Shown: positions 6,581 through 25,755 of the stretch, in pieces
How the letters are laid out: each line of letters starts with the position of its first letter
How positions within the stretch are numbered: the stretch's first letter is position 1
From: a virus
Taxonomy: Duplodnaviria > Heunggongvirae > Uroviricota > Caudoviricetes
Direction: 5' to 3' (one strand)
Virus record (IMG/VR): IMGVR_UViG_3300044673_000278
Location: 1 to 64,000 of that record
DNA: 64,000 bases
The notes under the pieces: model-generated
Told to the model about the DNA's origin: nothing
Seen by the model: the letters and a program-made list of their open reading frames with translations, nothing else
Database searches by the model: none
Program-made: the position numbers and the translations under genes

Positions 6581-6609
6581 ATTGTATACTAGAGAGATTT
6601 AGTGGTCAA
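6581..6609 (-). promoter_or_regulatory. sigma70-type early promoter
   Basis: TTGACC-17-TACAAT; -35 overlaps stop of 6606 gene. Confidence 0.75.
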
Positions 6610-6842
6610 GCCCACTTTAGGGTAAATGCGCAGAAGTCGCGCTCAGAATCAAAGTAAAAGGTGTAGCGGCCAGGACGAACGTCCGAACTCACCTCAATCA
6701 GTTGCCAGCGCCACTCGTCTTGCATTTCGCTTTTGCACCAGTTTATCACTGAATCAATGGTGCCAAAAGGTTTGGTGATTTCCCGTGCATGACGGAAACT
6801 TTCTCGATCCCTAATCTGATGAGCAGTGGCTACAGCGGTCAT
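6606..6842 (-). CDS. FxL(K/R)W-tail family protein
   Basis: INWC...FYFDSERDFCAFTLKWA. Confidence 0.75.
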   Translation of the reverse strand: MTAVATAHQIRDRESFRHAREITKPFGTIDSVINWCKSEMQDEWRWQLIEVSSDVRPGRYTFYFDSERDFCAFTLKWA

Positions 6843-6851
6843 TTACATTAG

Positions 6852-7208
6852 TTATGCATGATTCCGGCGCCCTAACATTTTCCACGCAATAACTTGTTCC
6901 ATGCGATACACAAAATCTTCTGCGTATTTGAGTTCAGTAAATGCCACGGCTGTTAGTTCAGCGGTTCGACCAAACATATGATCAAGAAACTCAGGGCTCC
7001 ATGAATGACTCAGTACTATATCGGCGTTGACCCTAACACATTCAAAACCGTTGGTGATTCCCACACAGTAGTCACCAGTTTTGAATGCCTGCTCTAGCAT
7101 GATATATCGGTGTTCGCGCACAGAACCGCGGCCAGGCCAAGACACAGAATAGTGCAAGCCTTCCCATGGCGCAGACATTTGTCCAATATGAAAAATGTTG
7201 CTATTCAT
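6852..7208 (-). CDS. hypothetical protein
   Basis: ATGA overlap with 7205 gene, start MNSNIF. Confidence 0.6.
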   Translation of the reverse strand: MNSNIFHIGQMSAPWEGLHYSVSWPGRGSVREHRYIMLEQAFKTGDYCVGITNGFECVRVNADIVLSHSWSPEFLDHMFGRTAELTAVAFTELKYAEDFVYRMEQVIAWKMLGRRNHA

Positions 7209-7438
7209 GACCAACGTAGACAAAAAGCAGTTAATGTAGGAGCATCGGGCAAGGTCAGTCCCATGCCTTGGATAAAGCCATTGTTTTGTTTGATCCAATC
7301 TTGTAGTTCATCGTAGTGATCGTTCCAGTATTCAAAATCACTGAGAATAACCACGTGTTCGCTGGGGTTGTCTAACAGGTCAGCAGGTGCCACTACAAAC
7401 CGAACGTTCTTAAACTCAGCCATGACGTCATCGGCCAT
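7205..7438 (-). CDS. FxL(K/R)W-tail family protein
   Basis: QDWI...TAFCLRWS. Confidence 0.7.
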   Translation of the reverse strand: MADDVMAEFKNVRFVVAPADLLDNPSEHVVILSDFEYWNDHYDELQDWIKQNNGFIQGMGLTLPDAPTLTAFCLRWS

Positions 7439-7685
7439 ATTTCAACGCAAATGCCACGGCTTCGGCATCGTCTTCAAATTGTATAAACTTTTCTTTGAGG
7501 TAGCCTGGGCCGTGATAATATGGACTACGGCAGTTGGCTTCCAACCATGCATCTACCTTGTGATCCAGGTAACTGCGCTGATAAAAAGCATCCACGTGAT
7601 CCACAGTGTGAGCATACACCACTTTATGCAACACAGGAGTCTTGATGCCCGGAAAGCCCGGCATGGGTTTATAGGTTATAGTCAT
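7428..7685 (-). CDS. FxL(K/R)W-tail family protein (LKY variant)
   Basis: DAWL...IQFEDDAEAVAFALKYGR. Confidence 0.7.
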   Translation of the reverse strand: MTITYKPMPGFPGIKTPVLHKVVYAHTVDHVDAFYQRSYLDHKVDAWLEANCRSPYYHGPGYLKEKFIQFEDDAEAVAFALKYGR

Positions 7686-7909
7686 TGTGCCCACTTGAGT
7701 TGATAGTATGTTGCCAGCATGGGATCTTGAAATCTAAATATCACTTGCCTGGGAGTCACTGCTGACCCAAACAAAACATTGAGATCATACTCGGCCTGCC
7801 GATATTCCCATTCAAAATCCCTATCCATTATCAATCCAGCATCAGTTAACTGATCTCGCAGCTCTAGAGCTTGCACAGCACTGACATGCAGGATTTGCAC
7901 TGGAGTCAT
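7682..7909 (-). CDS. FxL(K/R)W-tail family protein
   Basis: FRFQDPMLATYYQLKWAQ. Confidence 0.7.
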   Translation of the reverse strand: MTPVQILHVSAVQALELRDQLTDAGLIMDRDFEWEYRQAEYDLNVLFGSAVTPRQVIFRFQDPMLATYYQLKWAQ

Positions 7910-12588: not shown

Positions 12589-12617
12589 ATTATACTACAT
12601 CGCGAATTATTGGTCAA
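12589..12617 (-). promoter_or_regulatory. sigma70-type promoter
   Basis: TTGACC-17-TATAAT. Confidence 0.85.
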
Positions 12618-12935: not shown

Positions 12936-13072
12936 TTGATAATCTCCTATGTAAGATGCTGTTGCGTCAGCATAGAGTTATTGTAGCAAATAGTGTTGGT
13001 TGGGTGCAATACAAAAAGGCAAGAAATTTTGGCAAAGTTCGCCATTTGTCACAGAATTTTAATATACGCAGA

Positions 13073-13080
13073 TATAAATA
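13073..13080 (+). promoter_or_regulatory. T4-type late promoter
   Basis: Exact TATAAATA upstream of AGGAG and ATG 13104. Confidence 0.65.
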
Positions 13081-13103
13081 AGGTTGCAATAGGAGAGCGT
13101 AAC

Positions 13104-13535
13104 ATGTTGCAAGCATACACCACCATTACCAACGAATTAGAAACCCTGATCAAGGACGATCCTGTGCGTCCTGAGATTCCTGTTGACCGCAGAGTCAATG
13201 CCAACAGTCGCATTTATGTGCTCAAAGAAGGTGAACAAACGCAGGCCGTGACTTGCGTGAAGTTTTTGAACTCGGTGCCCTCGGCTGTGGATGAATTGGT
13301 GGACACAGTGGAATCGGCTACCACTGCGGTATTCTATACCATTTGGAGTTATGCTGCCGGTGCTGGACGTACCTTGATTCAAGAAGCCCAAAAAAGCATT
13401 GAAGCAGAATTTCCAGGGATCAACACCTATGTTACGCTGAGCCCAAAAACCGAAATGGCTCGTCGATTCCATTTGAAAAATGGTGCTGGTATCTACAGAG
13501 AAAACTCTGACACTGTGAACTACATCTATCGCTAA
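13104..13535 (+). CDS. minimal malonyl-CoA decarboxylase-like (GNAT-fold) protein
   Basis: AVFYTI, EFP, VTLSP, FHLKNGA, VNYIY match MCD catalytic-domain motifs. Confidence 0.6.
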   Translation: MLQAYTTITNELETLIKDDPVRPEIPVDRRVNANSRIYVLKEGEQTQAVTCVKFLNSVPSAVDELVDTVESATTAVFYTIWSYAAGAGRTLIQEAQKSIEAEFPGINTYVTLSPKTEMARRFHLKNGAGIYRENSDTVNYIYR

Positions 13536-13741
13536 CACCAACGCAGTGTGAACATCACAGCATGTTCATGCTGACGAAAAAGCCAAGTGGTTCTGGTTCT
13601 GCCGTCAATGACATACTCAGCGGGATCTATGCCCAGTTTATACCAGTCACGATCAAACTCGCCAATGGTGGCTTCGCACCATAACTGCACTGAATACCAG
13701 TCTGGATTTTCTATGGTGATGCGATAAGGCCAGTCGTTCAT
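13532..13741 (-). CDS. FxL(K/R)W-tail family protein (last of array)
   Basis: MNDWPY...QLWC...WLFRQHEHAVMFTLRWC. Confidence 0.75.
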   Translation of the reverse strand: MNDWPYRITIENPDWYSVQLWCEATIGEFDRDWYKLGIDPAEYVIDGRTRTTWLFRQHEHAVMFTLRWC

Positions 13742-13968
13742 GCCCATTTCAATGCACATGCCACAGCATGCCTTTCTTCTTCGAACCAAATGTCCAATCG
13801 CTCGGTGGCTGACAGATAGCGTATATAAAATTTGTCCTTGTTCCACTCTACCAGTTCTAAGATCCAATCCCTAATATCTGCCACTTCATCTAGACGAGAT
13901 TTAATATTCCAAAGGCCTTTGCTCTTTAGAGTTACAAACACGCGATGATTGAGATTGTCGTTGATCAT
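13738..13968 (-). CDS. FxL(K/R)W-tail family protein
   Basis: MINDNL...IWFEEERHAVACALKWA. Confidence 0.75.
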   Translation of the reverse strand: MINDNLNHRVFVTLKSKGLWNIKSRLDEVADIRDWILELVEWNKDKFYIRYLSATERLDIWFEEERHAVACALKWA

Positions 13969-14216
13969 GACCACCTCAACACGAACCAATCACGGTCAGC
14001 AGGGTCTTTGAACCAGAATTTGGCACTGTTGACATACCACCGAGCCGCAGGCGTCCACACGCCATCTTCGGGAGTGGGCCCAAATGTGCTCACACACCAG
14101 GCCAACATTTCGTCCCAATCTTTTCTGAACCACGTGGGTGCAGGTGCAAAAAACAAAGGACGCACTGTCCAATACTGTTGTCCATACACCACACCTTCGC
14201 TGAGTTCGAGTTTCAT
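13965..14216 (-). CDS. FxL(K/R)W-tail family protein
   Basis: MKLELS...AWC...FWFKDPADRDWFVLRWS. Confidence 0.75.
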   Translation of the reverse strand: MKLELSEGVVYGQQYWTVRPLFFAPAPTWFRKDWDEMLAWCVSTFGPTPEDGVWTPAARWYVNSAKFWFKDPADRDWFVLRWS

Positions 14217-14464
14217 GTCCATTTCAAACACAGCATGGTATAGGTTGGTTCATCGACATCAAAGATGCGGCCGTATCGTTCTTCGCCGCCACCGTACTCG
14301 TGCCACTGATCCCGGGGCTGACTTCTTAACCAAGCAGCAATATCTGTGCGGTAAGTGCGAATCACGTACCAAGGCTGATCGTCCACAGTGCCAGTGTTGA
14401 CCAATTCAAATGGTGGCAGATGATTAGCATTGACCCAACCGCCAGGAACAGAAACCAGTTTCAT
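14213..14464 (-). CDS. FxL(K/R)W-tail family protein
   Basis: MKLVSV...AWL...YTMLCLKWT. Confidence 0.75.
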   Translation of the reverse strand: MKLVSVPGGWVNANHLPPFELVNTGTVDDQPWYVIRTYRTDIAAWLRSQPRDQWHEYGGGEERYGRIFDVDEPTYTMLCLKWT

Positions 14465-14673
14465 ACCCACTTTAGTTTGCACAGCGTAATCATTTCTTCT
14501 GTGGTGTACAACACTGCACCAGGTGTGGTACGCCAACACAGTCCCCTCACATGTTGTTTGGCCCAGGCAACAATTTGTTCAGCAGTGCCAACTTCGCAAC
14601 AAAACTCTACCCGATAGTTGTACGGGTATTTGGGCGTTGGTTTATACATCAATTGTTGGACTTGGATCTTCAT
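14461..14673 (-). CDS. FxL(K/R)W-tail family protein
   Basis: MKIQVQ...AWA...TLCKLKWV. Confidence 0.75.
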   Translation of the reverse strand: MKIQVQQLMYKPTPKYPYNYRVEFCCEVGTAEQIVAWAKQHVRGLCWRTTPGAVLYTTEEMITLCKLKWV

Positions 14674-14864
14674 GACCATTTCAATGCAAATAACACGGCA
14701 TCTGCCTCGTTGTGAAACCAAAAGGTGCGAAAAGTATCCCAGGCCCAACGGGTTCCGTTGGGTTCCGGTGGTCCGAAGTTTTGCACACACCACTTCCAAA
14801 CAGGATTAAGTCCGTCTGGACTGTATGTTTGGCGTGCTTTCTTGCTGACTTTGATTTCAATCAT
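14670..14864 (-). CDS. FxL(K/R)W-tail family protein
   Basis: MIEIKV...KWC...FWFHNEADAVLFALKWS. Confidence 0.75.
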   Translation of the reverse strand: MIEIKVSKKARQTYSPDGLNPVWKWCVQNFGPPEPNGTRWAWDTFRTFWFHNEADAVLFALKWS

Positions 14865-15085
14865 AACCACTTCAACTTAAACATCACAGCATCTTGCTCG
14901 CGAGCAAAATGATACTCAAGATAATCTGTGTAGTGATCCACATGCCACGGTTGTTGTTCTGTGACACTATCCCTAAACCTAGCATGAACTCCGACATTGG
15001 TCAACAACCACTTGTTGATAGGACTTTCGTCAATCCATCGGTTGCGTTGTTGTGGATGATACAGTCGAACGCTGGCCGCAATCAT
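14861..15085 (-). CDS. FxL(K/R)W-tail family protein
   Basis: MIAASV...KWL...FAREQDAVMFKLKWL. Confidence 0.75.
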   Translation of the reverse strand: MIAASVRLYHPQQRNRWIDESPINKWLLTNVGVHARFRDSVTEQQPWHVDHYTDYLEYHFAREQDAVMFKLKWL

Positions 15086-15369
15086 GACCACCTCAACTTC
15101 AAAAAAGCAGCCATTTCTGGCGGCACTACGAAAACACTTTCGAACCACAGATACCACGTGTACTTTTCTTTGGGAAAAGCTTCATTCATCCACGCAAACT
15201 CTTCGCCAATGACATCTACACAATAGTGCCCTTCGTATCCACTGGGCACTTCGTCTCTAAACGAATTAGGAAGTTTAAAAATGCTTGGTTTCGAGAGCCA
15301 ATCAGCATGTTGATCTAATTCTAAATCAGAGATAATAGTGCCAGGCATGGCTCGGAAATTTGCTTTCAT
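15082..15369 (-). CDS. FxL(K/R)W-tail family protein
   Basis: MKANFR...AWM...MAAFLKLRWS. Confidence 0.75.
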   Translation of the reverse strand: MKANFRAMPGTIISDLELDQHADWLSKPSIFKLPNSFRDEVPSGYEGHYCVDVIGEEFAWMNEAFPKEKYTWYLWFESVFVVPPEMAAFLKLRWS

Positions 15370-15578
15370 GACCACCTCAATGCGAACATCACAGCATCTC
15401 GATGTGAGCGAAAATGCCACACAGTTTCGGACCGATTGAACATACCGCCGCGATAGTCGTCCTCACAGTTTTGCCGGCACCACTCAAACCTCTGATCTTT
15501 ACCCCACACCCAGCCGCCCGAATGTGGCACTGTCACACGGTGCTGGAGATCTCGGCTGCGACTGTATTTTGCTGTCAT
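15366..15578 (-). CDS. FxL(K/R)W-tail family protein
   Basis: MTAKYS...EWC...WHFRSHRDAVMFALRWS. Confidence 0.75.
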   Translation of the reverse strand: MTAKYSRSRDLQHRVTVPHSGGWVWGKDQRFEWCRQNCEDDYRGGMFNRSETVWHFRSHRDAVMFALRWS

Positions 15579-15766
15579 AACCACTTCAATGCAAACCACG
15601 CAAAGTTTTTTTCTCTGACACTGAATCCATAGCCATGCGGACCGCTGTATTCGTGCAAGTATTTGATATCGTTTTTTGTCATCCAAGATATTATATCTAA
15701 AAATTCTTGGAATGTTTTTACAAAATAATGGTTATCAGGATAACCTCTAACTTGATAAACTTTCAT
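15575..15766 (-). CDS. FxL(K/R)W-tail family protein
   Basis: MKVYQV...SWM...FAWFALKWL. Confidence 0.75.
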   Translation of the reverse strand: MKVYQVRGYPDNHYFVKTFQEFLDIISWMTKNDIKYLHEYSGPHGYGFSVREKNFAWFALKWL

Positions 15767-16047
15767 GCCCACCTCAACATAAATGCAGTGCGGTCGCGCT
15801 CGTGCTTGAAGTAGATGGTTTCCCAGTTCCAAATCCAGTCGTTGCCAAAATGCTGTTCACACCACTCGGCAACCTCCTCAAACGGAGCCACACCGTTGTA
15901 TTGCCAGCTAGGAAAGCGGTCTTTGACATAGCAAATAACAGCCCAAGAATCGGCAGTCATACGGTGACCGTCACCAACAAAGTTCATCAACTTGTCTTGC
16001 AAAGTTGCATGAATCAAATCAATTTTGAGCGTGTCCCGAACTTTCAT
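15763..16047 (-). CDS. FxL(K/R)W-tail family protein
   Basis: MKVRDT...EWC...IYFKHERDRTAFMLRWA. Confidence 0.75.
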   Translation of the reverse strand: MKVRDTLKIDLIHATLQDKLMNFVGDGHRMTADSWAVICYVKDRFPSWQYNGVAPFEEVAEWCEQHFGNDWIWNWETIYFKHERDRTAFMLRWA

Positions 16048-16313
16048 GACCACCTCAAGCAGAACAGCAGATATTCTTTTTCGTCAGTGAAGTAGAATGT
16101 AGGATACTGATGGTGCCAGTTGGGCTCGTAGTAGCCGCCGTGGTAGAGGTTGTTGTAGCACCAGTCGGCCATGTCTTGCCACTGAGCTATTGGCACACTG
16201 TCAAACCGCCGAACGAATACTTGGGTCTTTGACGTGCTTACAGTCGCCACGGAATCGGAAGCCGGAACATGTGCATGATAGATTTCCACTGTGCTCTGTG
16301 ATTCGGTATTCAT
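16044..16313 (-). CDS. FxL(K/R)W-tail family protein (first of array; start uncertain, probably near 16200)
   Basis: DWC...FYFTDEKEYLLFCLRWS; track start overlaps the SWIM gene. Confidence 0.65.
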   Translation of the reverse strand: MNTESQSTVEIYHAHVPASDSVATVSTSKTQVFVRRFDSVPIAQWQDMADWCYNNLYHGGYYEPNWHHQYPTFYFTDEKEYLLFCLRWS

Positions 16314-16560
16314 CGCCTTTGCTGCCTTTCACAATCCAATAACGGCCTTCAGGTTCTGGTTCCTTGAGCTTGGTCTTAAACTGCACAGGGTTGACCACAA
16401 ACTTACGCCCACGAGTATCAATTTTGATGGGATTCTTAAATGTTTTGATCTCCCCACCAGCGGGACGAAACGCATACATCTTGGTCTTTGAATCATCCAG
16501 CAAGTAGATGCCGTTGGGCACACTGTCCTTGTAGTCAGTGGTTTCAGCAAACCATTTCAT
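16201..16560 (-). CDS. SWIM zinc-finger protein
   Basis: VKGSKGDEY...CTC.GF.FR..CKH. Confidence 0.8.
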   Translation of the reverse strand: MKWFAETTDYKDSVPNGIYLLDDSKTKMYAFRPAGGEIKTFKNPIKIDTRGRKFVVNPVQFKTKLKEPEPEGRYWIVKGSKGDEYRITEHSGNLSCTCSGFRFRGDCKHVKDPSIRSAV

Positions 16561-16796
16561 TCTTCTTCTAATCCAAAATGTTCTAGGATTTGACGTGGGA
16601 CTTCATAGTTACCGTCAGCATAGCGTTCACCAACATCGGCACATGCCCGAACAATCAACTCGGCGAACTTTAGGTCTCGGGCTTTTTGAATTGTAGCCTC
16701 CCATGTCAAGCCATTCTCTATACCACGAAAGAAGGGAATCTCTACAGCAATTGCCGAACATTGACTAGCAATTTCTTGAATTCGTTGTTCGTTCAT
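16557..16796 (-). CDS. MNERI...FAELIV...HFG family protein
   Basis: MNEQRIQEI...KFAELIVRAC...HFGLEEE. Confidence 0.7.
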   Translation of the reverse strand: MNEQRIQEIASQCSAIAVEIPFFRGIENGLTWEATIQKARDLKFAELIVRACADVGERYADGNYEVPRQILEHFGLEEE

Positions 16797-16906
16797 AGTG
16801 CCATGATCCTTGCCAACACTTCACGGGCTTGAGTGAGATCCACAATCTCGGGTTCGGGCCAACCCTGATAGGGCTGGCTCCAGGATATAGTATACAGCAT
16901 CATTGG

Positions 16907-17133
16907 TTATCCTCTAACGTACTTACGACCCAGTGGGACGTTGACTACATCATCCCAGAATTCATCCCAGTAGGTTTTGCTAACATTTTGAAAACGTTGG
17001 TACATTGTACCTTTTGCTTGTTTCAATGTTGCACCTTTGAGCAATTCTCTCAGCAGTTGCTCTCGACATTCGCTGACTGTTGGATGCCAGTTATCACGTT
17101 CAGGCCTCACATAAAAATATTCTGTCATCTCAT
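16907..17133 (-). CDS. hypothetical protein
   Basis: ATGA overlap, start MTEYFY. Confidence 0.5.
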
Positions 17134-17540: not shown

Positions 17541-17569
17541 ATTATAGCAAAAGACGAATTTCGGGTCAA
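17541..17569 (-). promoter_or_regulatory. sigma70-type early promoter
   Basis: TTGACC-17-TATAAT. Confidence 0.85.
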
Positions 17570-25061: not shown

Positions 25062-25090
25062 ATTGTACACAAAAAATCATTTCTGGTCAA
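25062..25090 (-). promoter_or_regulatory. sigma70-type promoter
   Basis: TTGACC-17-TACAAT. Confidence 0.7.
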
Positions 25091-25289
25091 ATGCCAGCGA
25101 AAACCACACAGCATCTTCCTTGCGTTCAAACCACACTGTGTTGGAACCATAATACAAGTAGAACCGACCTGGACTATCCATGAGTTGGAGTTGGCGTTTG
25201 ACCGCAGAGTACGGCTGGGTGCCAGGTACTCGTTGGACTTTGAACCAATGTTCCTGACGAATCCGTTTGTCTTTGTTCCAATACTTCAT
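25077..25289 (-). CDS. FxL(K/R)W-tail family protein (variant tail)
   Basis: VWFERKEDAVWFSLAF. Confidence 0.7.
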   Translation of the reverse strand: MKYWNKDKRIRQEHWFKVQRVPGTQPYSAVKRQLQLMDSPGRFYLYYGSNTVWFERKEDAVWFSLAFDQK

Positions 25290-25516
25290 GACCATTTCAA
25301 CTTAAACAAGGTTACAGCCGCGTCTGAATTCAACTTCCACATGTCGTAACTGGTGCGCAGTCCCAATTGGTTTGCTTGCACAAACTGATCGATTTCAGCG
25401 GCTTCGTGCTCATCAATTGCATAGCCCATGGGCGCTCCTGCACTACTGGCCGGACGCACACGCACCTTGCGCCGCAGCCAACTGAAGTGAAACCGCTGGC
25501 GTGGTGGCAATGTCAT
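25286..25516 (-). CDS. FxL(K/R)W-tail family protein
   Basis: DAAVTLFKLKWS; ATGA overlaps. Confidence 0.7.
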   Translation of the reverse strand: MTLPPRQRFHFSWLRRKVRVRPASSAGAPMGYAIDEHEAAEIDQFVQANQLGLRTSYDMWKLNSDAAVTLFKLKWS

Positions 25517-25755
25517 CCCCATCGCAGTTTGAATGCAGTGGCATCTGCACCCGATTCAAAAGCAAATTCACGACGTTGAAAACTGCTGACCCAATAGCTG
25601 CTCATTTGCTGTTCACACCAAATATTCAATCCCATCCAGGATGCCTTGGCTTCGTAACCATTTTGAGCCTGAACAACATGCCACCCGCGCTTTTGGGCAC
25701 CACGTACAGTGCGTGGGTTGGTGGGTCGATAGGGTTTGGAAAGACAGCGAGCCAT
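25513..25755 (-). CDS. FxL(K/R)W-tail family protein
   Basis: IWC...FAFESGADATAFKLRWG. Confidence 0.7.
   Translation of the reverse strand: MARCLSKPYRPTNPRTVRGAQKRGWHVVQAQNGYEAKASWMGLNIWCEQQMSSYWVSSFQRREFAFESGADATAFKLRWG

Follow-up and report, generated by a model that had tools for sequence, protein, structure and literature searches.

An array of twelve overlapping small paralogues in an uncultured jumbo myophage, with apparent turnover of whole cassettes

Introduction

What use could a large phage make of twelve small, weakly similar proteins whose genes follow one another with no DNA in between? The question is raised by a gene array on the minus strand at positions 16313 to 13532 of the window, our term for the whole 64,000-nucleotide stretch analysed here, which is the first 64 kb of the 251,693-bp linear IMG/VR virus record IMGVR_UViG_3300044673_000278 (completeness estimate ~72%). 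Our preferred answer, to which we give slightly better than an even chance, is that the array is a set of translationally coupled accessory genes of a jumbo myophage, serving as an early, co-expressed and fast-turnover repertoire of binders against different host or competitor molecules. Paralogue arrays, translational coupling and modular shuffling are already known as general phenomena. What is new here is an unstudied family with no structural relative, and the documentation of its cassette behaviour in natural populations. Most genes of giant phages have no known function, and this family, at >2,400 clusters, is among their large unexplored ones.

The array belongs to an uncultured jumbo myophage. 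Genes of the record include those for terminase, portal and tail sheath, and it further codes for a DNA ligase and a ribonucleotide reductase. Among cultured phages its nearest relative by terminase is Pseudomonas phage PA5oct, a 287-kb jumbo myophage (NC_071039.1), the two terminases sharing 54% identity. A megablast of the array region brought up no cultured phage that matches it at the DNA level.

Array structure

The array consists of 12 open reading frames (ORFs) running back to back from 16313 to 13532. All 11 internal junctions (11/11) are ATGA stop/start overlaps of 4 nucleotides (nt), and intergenic DNA is absent, as had been claimed in an earlier reading of the sequence alone (hereafter the original prediction). 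The junctions have the form NNA-TGA, in which the last base of the final sense codon and the TG of the stop make the next ATG. With the overlap ATGs as starts, the proteins measure 89, 94, 63, 70, 95, 74, 64, 70, 83, 83, 76 and 69 amino acids (aa). A hidden Markov model (HMM) of the chain scores each of the 12 genes at E 1e-12 to 7e-23, and every one ends in L-K/R-W-x; pairwise identity between paralogues within the chain is only 13–31%. Alignment also upheld the claim of low similarity except for a W(C/L/M) helix, an aromatic strand and an E.DA..F.L(K/R)W tail. The genes are listed here from first to last, with orthologues named by the viral contigs that carry them (L006, L019, L020, L038 and L039), and followed by the gene upstream of the array.

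16044..16313, minus strand: array gene 1; 89 aa from ATG 16313, likelier ~50 aa from GTG 16196; tail LRWS, codons TTG AGG TGG
15763..16047, minus strand: array gene 2; 94 aa; tail LRWA, AGG; orthologues 80–91% in L038 and L039
15575..15766, minus strand: array gene 3; 63 aa; tail LKWL; at another array position in L039
15366..15578, minus strand: array gene 4; 70 aa; tail LRWS, AGG; crossover partner in L038
15082..15369, minus strand: array gene 5; 95 aa; tail LRWS, AGG; precisely missing from contigs of two other metagenomes (joint 15081->15366)
14861..15085, minus strand: array gene 6; 74 aa; tail LKWL; orthologues 62–71% in L006, L019 and L020
14670..14864, minus strand: array gene 7; 64 aa; tail LKWS; modelled as strand-helix-helix-strand-strand-helix, predicted local distance difference test (pLDDT) 81.8
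14461..14673, minus strand: array gene 8; 70 aa; tail LKWV; 96% orthologue in L038
14213..14464, minus strand: array gene 9; 83 aa; tail LKWT; modelled with the shared C-terminal core and four N-terminal strands, pLDDT 88.1
13965..14216, minus strand: array gene 10; 83 aa; tail LRWS, AGG; orthologues 88% (L038) and 72% (L006)
13738..13968, minus strand: array gene 11; 76 aa; tail LKWA; precisely missing from contigs of two other metagenomes (joint 13741->13969)
13532..13741, minus strand: array gene 12, the last; 69 aa; tail LRWC, codons CTG CGT TGG, stop TAG; no coupled gene behind
16201..16560, minus strand: SWIM-zinc-finger-like gene (C-x-C...C-x-H), directly upstream of the array; Pfam SWIM E 0.004, below cut-off

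In its long reading, from ATG 16313, gene 1 overlaps the SWIM-like gene by 113 nt. Of the 28 substitutions that separate the window from a relative within this overlap, 15 hit third positions in the SWIM frame, which are second positions in the array frame, and therefore the start of gene 1 is more likely GTG 16196, giving what is probably a core-only protein of ~50 aa. In the window, as in its close relative L039, the array is headed by the SWIM-like gene, which is missing from arrays further removed.

Iterated and six-frame searches put the firm members in the record at 19, of which 12 form the chain, four lie at 7909-6606 and three at 25755-25077. The original prediction had counted about 21, in three clusters plus solos; the three clusters stand, and the count comes down to the 19 and one weak solo. 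Six-frame search of the rest of the record (187 kb beyond the window) gave no further member.

7682-7909, 7428-7685, 7205-7438 and 6606-6842, minus strand: second cluster, four members; non-family gene 6852-7208 in between; ends at promoter 6581
25513-25755, 25286-25516 and 25077-25289, minus strand: third cluster, three members; ends at promoter 25062, which overprints the last tail
40549-40842, minus strand: divergent candidate solo; HMM E 0.054 only; motif ...FFALTW, then a 20-aa extension

Cassette gain and loss

Orthologues of the array genes in other viral contigs are 44–73% identical, and up to 100% in two close relatives, against the 13–31% found between paralogues. For 13 orthologous pairs from the two close relatives, the ratio of nonsynonymous to synonymous divergence (dN/dS) is 0.06–0.26, with a pooled value of 0.17, and so the array genes are real and individually maintained. 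On these substitution patterns each cassette is an old paralogue that purifying selection has preserved.

Contig L038 has 86–95% DNA identity to the window, and is without three cassettes (15369-14670). The gene at its resulting junction is chimeric, its left part matching gene 4 and its last ~20 nt matching gene 7. Contig L039 carries four cassettes foreign to the window, has lost several of the window's cassettes, and has its gene-3 orthologue moved; its array closes with the gene-11 orthologue, whose tail switches partway to the terminal version with CTG CGT. For the window and L038, a single phage pair, synonymous divergence (dS) is as low as 0.02 in one cassette and as high as 0.79 in another, which argues for a mosaic history.

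Contigs from public sequencing runs of two freshwater studies and one aquaculture study were also aligned to the region. They join exactly across cassette 11 (13741->13969) and cassette 5 (15081->15366), and span a five-cassette gap (14860->16044, 1,183 nt) and a two-cassette gap (14874->15368); one of them has 430 other bases in place of cassette 5. The sole DNA similarity between cassettes is at the junction, in exact matches of 13–18 nt. The median number of identical positions is 25.5/48 in junction windows versus 13/48 in gene bodies, the latter being random identity. These alignments show that between close relatives whole cassettes have been gained, lost, replaced and reordered, the crossovers falling inside the conserved tail, and the exchange is best explained by ordinary homologous recombination at the 13–18-nt identities.

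Two upstream genes that are not of the family, 16905-17133 and 16565-16791, are also exactly missing in other metagenomes (joint 16904->17134 in three runs, 16564->16792 in one), so the whole operon is plastic and not the array alone. At the other end, plus-strand gene 12993-13535, the sole plus-strand gene nearby, converges on the array, its 3′ end overlapping the array's final stop codon by 4 nt. It has a Pfam MCD match at E 7e-8 (GNAT-like/malonyl-CoA-decarboxylase C-terminal domain).

Tail codons and coupling

Coupled tails in the chain have the form TTG AGG/AAR TGG NNA TGA. The AGG version gives TTGAGGTGGNNATGA, that is, a GAGG(TGG) Shine-Dalgarno (SD) site placed 5 bases before the overlapping ATG. 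GAGGTGG occurs at 5/11 junctions and GAAGTGG or GAAATGG at 6/11. The codons are not those usual for the genome: the tail Arg is AGG in 5/5 coupled tails versus 4.5% of Arg codons in 130 long ORFs, and the tail Leu is TTG in 10/11 versus 30%. The array-final gene, with nothing to couple, encodes the same residues as CTG CGT TGG and stops at TAG, and members of the other two clusters have CGT or CGA for the tail Arg. The bias of the coupled tails recurs in related contigs, where 24/29 tail Arg residues are encoded by AGG or AGA.

Translational coupling at ATGA overlaps, with an SD site inside the upstream gene, is textbook knowledge and is shared here. Distinct to this chain is that a protein motif common to the family contains the site, and that the site recurs along a series of paralogues. 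Because the tail motif is found family-wide with different codons, and because homology extends 45 residues upstream of it, the motif is conserved as protein, with codon choice adding a translational-coupling signal.

A much simpler view would make the shared tail purely a matter of DNA, combining ribosome site, overlap and recombination site, with the genes otherwise unrelated or mere filler ORFs. It would account for the junction being the only DNA homology between cassettes and for the 5/5 use of a rare AGG codon. However, homology covers the whole ~45-aa core, including a helix ~35 residues upstream of the tail; the array-final gene and the other clusters keep L-R-W using CGT or CGA; pooled dN/dS is 0.17; and two confident structure models, described below, have a common fold. 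Contradicted on all four counts, this view was rejected as highly improbable.

Promoter elements

Two kinds of entry describe the promoters that bear on the array and the clusters.

17541..17569, minus strand: sigma-70-type promoter TTGACC-N17-TATAAT, TG-extended, 11/12 to consensus; conserved leader and AGGAG site; nearest strong promoter upstream of the array
1049, 1578, 3370, 3635, 6581, 12589, 17541, 18956, 25062, 28187 and 48574, minus strand: repeated promoter elements matching the promoter pattern

The promoter at 17541 is preceded by a stem-loop and T-run. From there down to 13532 the minus strand has no terminator-like site, and a single weak promoter-like match (9/12). The original prediction had the chain expressing its members together. 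The single upstream sigma-70-like promoter, the ATGA coupling throughout, and the lack of a terminator or strong internal promoter on that strand favor this, the one 9/12 match inside the array being weak. To judge from the promoter type, the array would be transcribed early by host RNA polymerase.

This promoter belongs to a repeated element of ~70 nt, made up of TTGACC-N17-TATAAT, the leader ATA.ACATAG.AAACAAACAGGAGC, an AGGAG site and a start codon. The minus strand of the window has 13 matches to the promoter pattern, most with the shared core and leader, and for the genome 30/30 matches are on the minus strand. A stem-loop and T-run often precedes the element, most clearly at 12589 and 28187. 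The second and third clusters lie at the far ends of promoter-bounded units, directly before promoters 6581 and 25062. The -35 hexamer of promoter 6581 contains the stop codon of member 6606-6842 (TGG GCT TGA CC). That of promoter 25062 lies inside the coding tail of member 25077-25289, whose tail is aberrant: in place of ...L-K/R-W-x it has ...SLAFDQK, as though the family tail had been written over by the promoter cassette.

Predicted structure

Two divergent members of the 12 were folded with family alignments. The 64-aa member (14670-14864) gave a model with pLDDT 81.8 and a predicted template modelling score (pTM) of 0.65, and the 83-aa member (14213-14464) one with pLDDT 88.1 and pTM 0.73. 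Both finish in a common helix-strand-strand-helix core, with N-terminal additions of one strand in the 64-aa and four strands in the 83-aa protein. The core is ~45–50 aa long: a first helix with the motif hydrophobic-x-x-W-C-x-x-N-F-G is followed by two aromatic strands, one with W... and one with F-x-F, and the C-terminal helix carries E-x-D-A-x-x-F-x-L-K/R-W, finishing 1–3 residues short of the stop. The common small alpha/beta fold that had been predicted was thus recovered in both of these divergent members, and their folds are not unrelated. A homodimer prediction with two copies of the 64-aa member scored 0.01, which is evidence neither way.

Foldseek against PDB returned nothing at E≤0.001. 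Exhaustive structural alignment to PDB gave best Z values of 4.9 and 6.1 for the two models, not above background. Alignments to ACT, KH and RRM domains have Z 4–5, within the chance range, and the rows are generic two-layer alpha/beta domains, secretin N-domains included. The only good structural neighbors are uncharacterized "uncultured Caudovirales phage" proteins from UniProt/BFVD (e.g., A0A6J5LU01 and A0A6J7WFP6), with template modelling (TM) scores of 0.6–0.79 and 22–34% identity. These carry no annotation or study.

The array proteins might instead be small nucleic-acid- or ligand-binding regulators of the phage's own expression, working through an ACT/KH/RRM-like two-layer alpha/beta domain, and not host-directed effectors. 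The top alignments to solved structures are indeed to ACT, KH, RRM, EF-G and eIF1-type domains (Z 4–5), and several members are basic, with isoelectric points (pI) of 9–10. Yet such Z values are below chance expectation for models of this kind, pI spans 4.1–10.1 with no conserved basic patch, and the presence or absence of cassettes between near-identical phages speaks against a core regulatory role. We consider the regulator explanation unlikely.

Conservation was computed for columns of 136 diverse aligned sequences. Positions conserved above 80% are W25, C26, F50, D55, F59, L61, K/R62 and W63 (W25 99%, C26 84%, F59 96%, L61 99%, K/R62 97%, W63 98%), followed by W/Y/F40, F48, N29, F30, G31, E53 and A56. 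The helix 1 motif, in the form hydrophobic-x-x-W-C(L/M)-x-x-N/Q-F/C-G, is present in the chain genes, C/L/M variants included. Conserved positions 22, 25, 26, 29 and 30 make a single stripe on helix 1. On the last helix 56, 59 and 63 make a stripe with 57/58 and 61 alongside and with E53 and D55 in the first turn, and positions 48 and 50 of strand 3 face the same way. The near-invariant hydrophobic set (W25, C26, F30, W40, F48, F50, A56, F59, L61 and W63) is spaced i, i+3/4, i+7 in the helices and alternately in the strands. Several related lineages replace K/R62, the sole conserved basic residue, by T, Q, S, A or G, and the last positions of the tail depart in one third-cluster member and in some other lineages. 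Taken with the secondary structure, this periodicity suggests that the conserved signature is probably for the most part buried, forming the hydrophobic core of a domain of ~50 residues. A surface patch could lie on the outer face of the sheet, where positions 41, 42 and 49 are rich in aromatics, and on the second stripe of the final helix.

These patterns bear on a further claim of the original prediction, that the conserved residues form an exposed face through which every member docks on the same partner (a protease or another hub, for instance), with a variable face picking the targets, so that the members would be adaptors. W25, F50, F59, L61 and W63 are near-invariant and K/R62 is kept at 97% among the 136 members, as a docking face might require; the last helix stripe at 57/58 and 61 could join the aromatic outer sheet in a surface patch; and two-domain fusions exist. 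The claim nevertheless goes unsupported, because the conserved residues, almost all of them large hydrophobics, have core-like spacing, and because the tail K/R varies between lineages and its codon choice follows the need for a ribosome site. No phage gene constantly adjoins the arrays when neighborhoods are compared across loci, and no fusion to another known domain was found among proteins of 208–2000 aa. A purely buried core had been named in advance as what would speak against a docking face; most of the signature probably is such a core, with the outer sheet and second stripe as parts that could be surface. A shared docking partner thus seems to us quite improbable.

Possible roles

We return to the preferred reading of the array as a repertoire of exchangeable binders. 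The array would be transcribed early from the sigma-70-type promoter at 17541 by host RNA polymerase and translated as one coupled chain. Its proteins would act as binders, each directed to a different host or competitor molecule for takeover or counter-defence, and selection would act on which cassettes a phage carries, not on point changes. The proteins are soluble, contain up to 11% tryptophan and have pI 4.1–10.1; copies vary mostly in N-terminal extensions, loops and surface charge. This pI range and the variable extensions and loops would be more readily expected of binders that each have their own target than of copies with one biochemical activity in common. The variable face of the original prediction, which would recognise many host targets (as anti-defence or proteolysis adaptors), may fit these features too, along with the cassette turnover. 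Our best guess at the role is host takeover or counter-defence, given that the promoters are of the early type, that near-identical phages can do without one cassette or another, and that each copy is under purifying selection; analogy points the same way. Exchangeable cassettes combined with preserved proteins are the pattern expected of such repertoires.

Several observations weigh against this reading. The six Lys junctions (AAG or AAA) have a weak SD site or none, and the strong SD-like tail is limited to the five AGG junctions. Purifying selection and cassette flux would fit roles other than host takeover too. Family members in PA5oct lie outside the block called early in the PA5oct paper (PMC7318152), so that early timing may not extend to every member of the family.

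A bolder proposal, which we offer as tentative and on balance doubtful, is that the family is a mini-scaffold for exchangeable binder libraries against host factors or defence, and that its coding tail now doubles as a plug-in site needing no recombinase. If so, one 15-nt element would close the core helix, start translation of the next gene and permit in-frame cassette swaps. Should targets be found, a panel of small binders would lie ready for use in the array, and the junction would exemplify how a single short sequence can serve genome plasticity as well as translation and protein folding.

Similar systems

The hyperplastic regions of T4-type phages contain small early genes that are shuffled by recombination at short repeated promoter-terminator (PeSL) cassettes (Arbiol et al. 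2010, PMC2839356; Comeau et al. 2014, PMC4122927). The locus described here is like them in its small, apparently dispensable genes behind sigma-70-like promoters and in its whole-gene indels and replacement at short repeats, and this genome likewise has stem-loop and promoter elements at operon borders (17541, 12589 and 28187). Unlike PeSL, the repeat inside the array is a coding tail, ribosome site and ATGA overlap, not a promoter-terminator cassette, and the cassettes are homologous paralogues of one family, not unrelated ORFans. PeSL-type units were looked for within the array and rejected, as the minus strand at 13532-16313 is without a terminator-like site and has the one weak promoter-like match (9/12).

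The array shares further features with integrons. Integron arrays have promoterless cassettes in one orientation, read from a single promoter, with a conserved border element and with presence or absence of cassettes between relatives. Single-orientation promoterless cassettes, a conserved border element, and presence/absence between relatives are all seen here. An integron array was rejected on two grounds: there is no tyrosine recombinase (PF00589) in the 251-kb record, which is ~72% complete, and the overlaps leave no space for attC.

Large DNA viruses and jumbo phages have tandem expansions of diverged small paralogues, usually read as host-interaction repertoires. The present array resembles these multigene families in its strongly diverged small tandem paralogues and their gain and loss between relatives, and differs from them in its protein family, in the strictly overlapping coupled chain and in the location of crossovers at junctions.

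Family members elsewhere

Searched against 1.84 billion proteins at E≤1e-3, a profile of the 19 window members matched the representatives of 2,416 clusters (50% identity). Nearly all of these relatives are 50–120 aa long, with the match extending to the C-terminus. Two long proteins (1176 and 1822 aa) match only through a 20–25-residue W-rich stretch, repeatedly, and were set aside as chance. Ten scanned chain genes and 91 diverse relatives found no family match in Pfam, PHROGs or NCBIfam, apart from a single TauD match (Pfam, NCBIfam) of one relative, which as a lone sequence was treated as a false family member. A sequence profile search of PDB chains gave zero matches even at E≤10. The belief that this is no characterized family was accordingly sustained by the Pfam, PHROG, NCBIfam and PDB-sequence searches. 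The nearest ESM Atlas clusters shown, by sequence features and shape, are labelled viral and are unnamed, and the most conserved member had no close relative in 185,579 prokaryote genomes, in a search that reaches close relatives only. The family appears from these searches to be virus-only, large and unstudied. A literature search on jumbo-phage paralogue arrays returned nothing relevant.

Among cultured phages, PA5oct carries three members annotated as hypothetical, gp209, gp210 and gp237, which match the family profile at E 3e-8 to 6e-7 for the record. They are divergent and are its only copies, scattered at 181548-182187 and 165381-165596 (NC_071039.1). The W-C-x-E-N helix and F-x-F strand are recognisable in them, as is E-x-x-A-x-x-F-x-L, but in place of L-K/R-W their tails finish in L-Q-F, L-I-H and L-Y-F. 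Of five cultured phages searched by profile PA5oct was the positive one; T4, KVP40, RaK2 and Xanthomonas phage BUDD had no member. With tblastn, four members gave nothing against 50,697 cultured-phage records even at E≤1. The PA5oct paper and its supplements hold no data on gp209, gp210 or gp237 (PMC7318152). The family now has a definition, a predicted fold and, in these three proteins, a cultured entry point.

Arrays of 2–10 members occur in many other viral contigs, in varied gene neighborhoods. Four metagenomic proteins of 139–161 aa (P0148, P0156, P0252 and P0262) contain two tandem family domains, each with a tail ...F-K-L-x-W, and look like read-through or fusion products of adjacent cassettes. 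Member 7428-7685 of the second cluster is unusually conserved, at 56–73% identity in many large viral contigs, some of 300–363 kb. Its relatives lie in a different, syntenic neighborhood (NAD synthase, cell-wall hydrolase, WYL_2, IF1-like and iron superoxide dismutase, Fe-SOD), and it may be an ancestral or functionally fixed copy.

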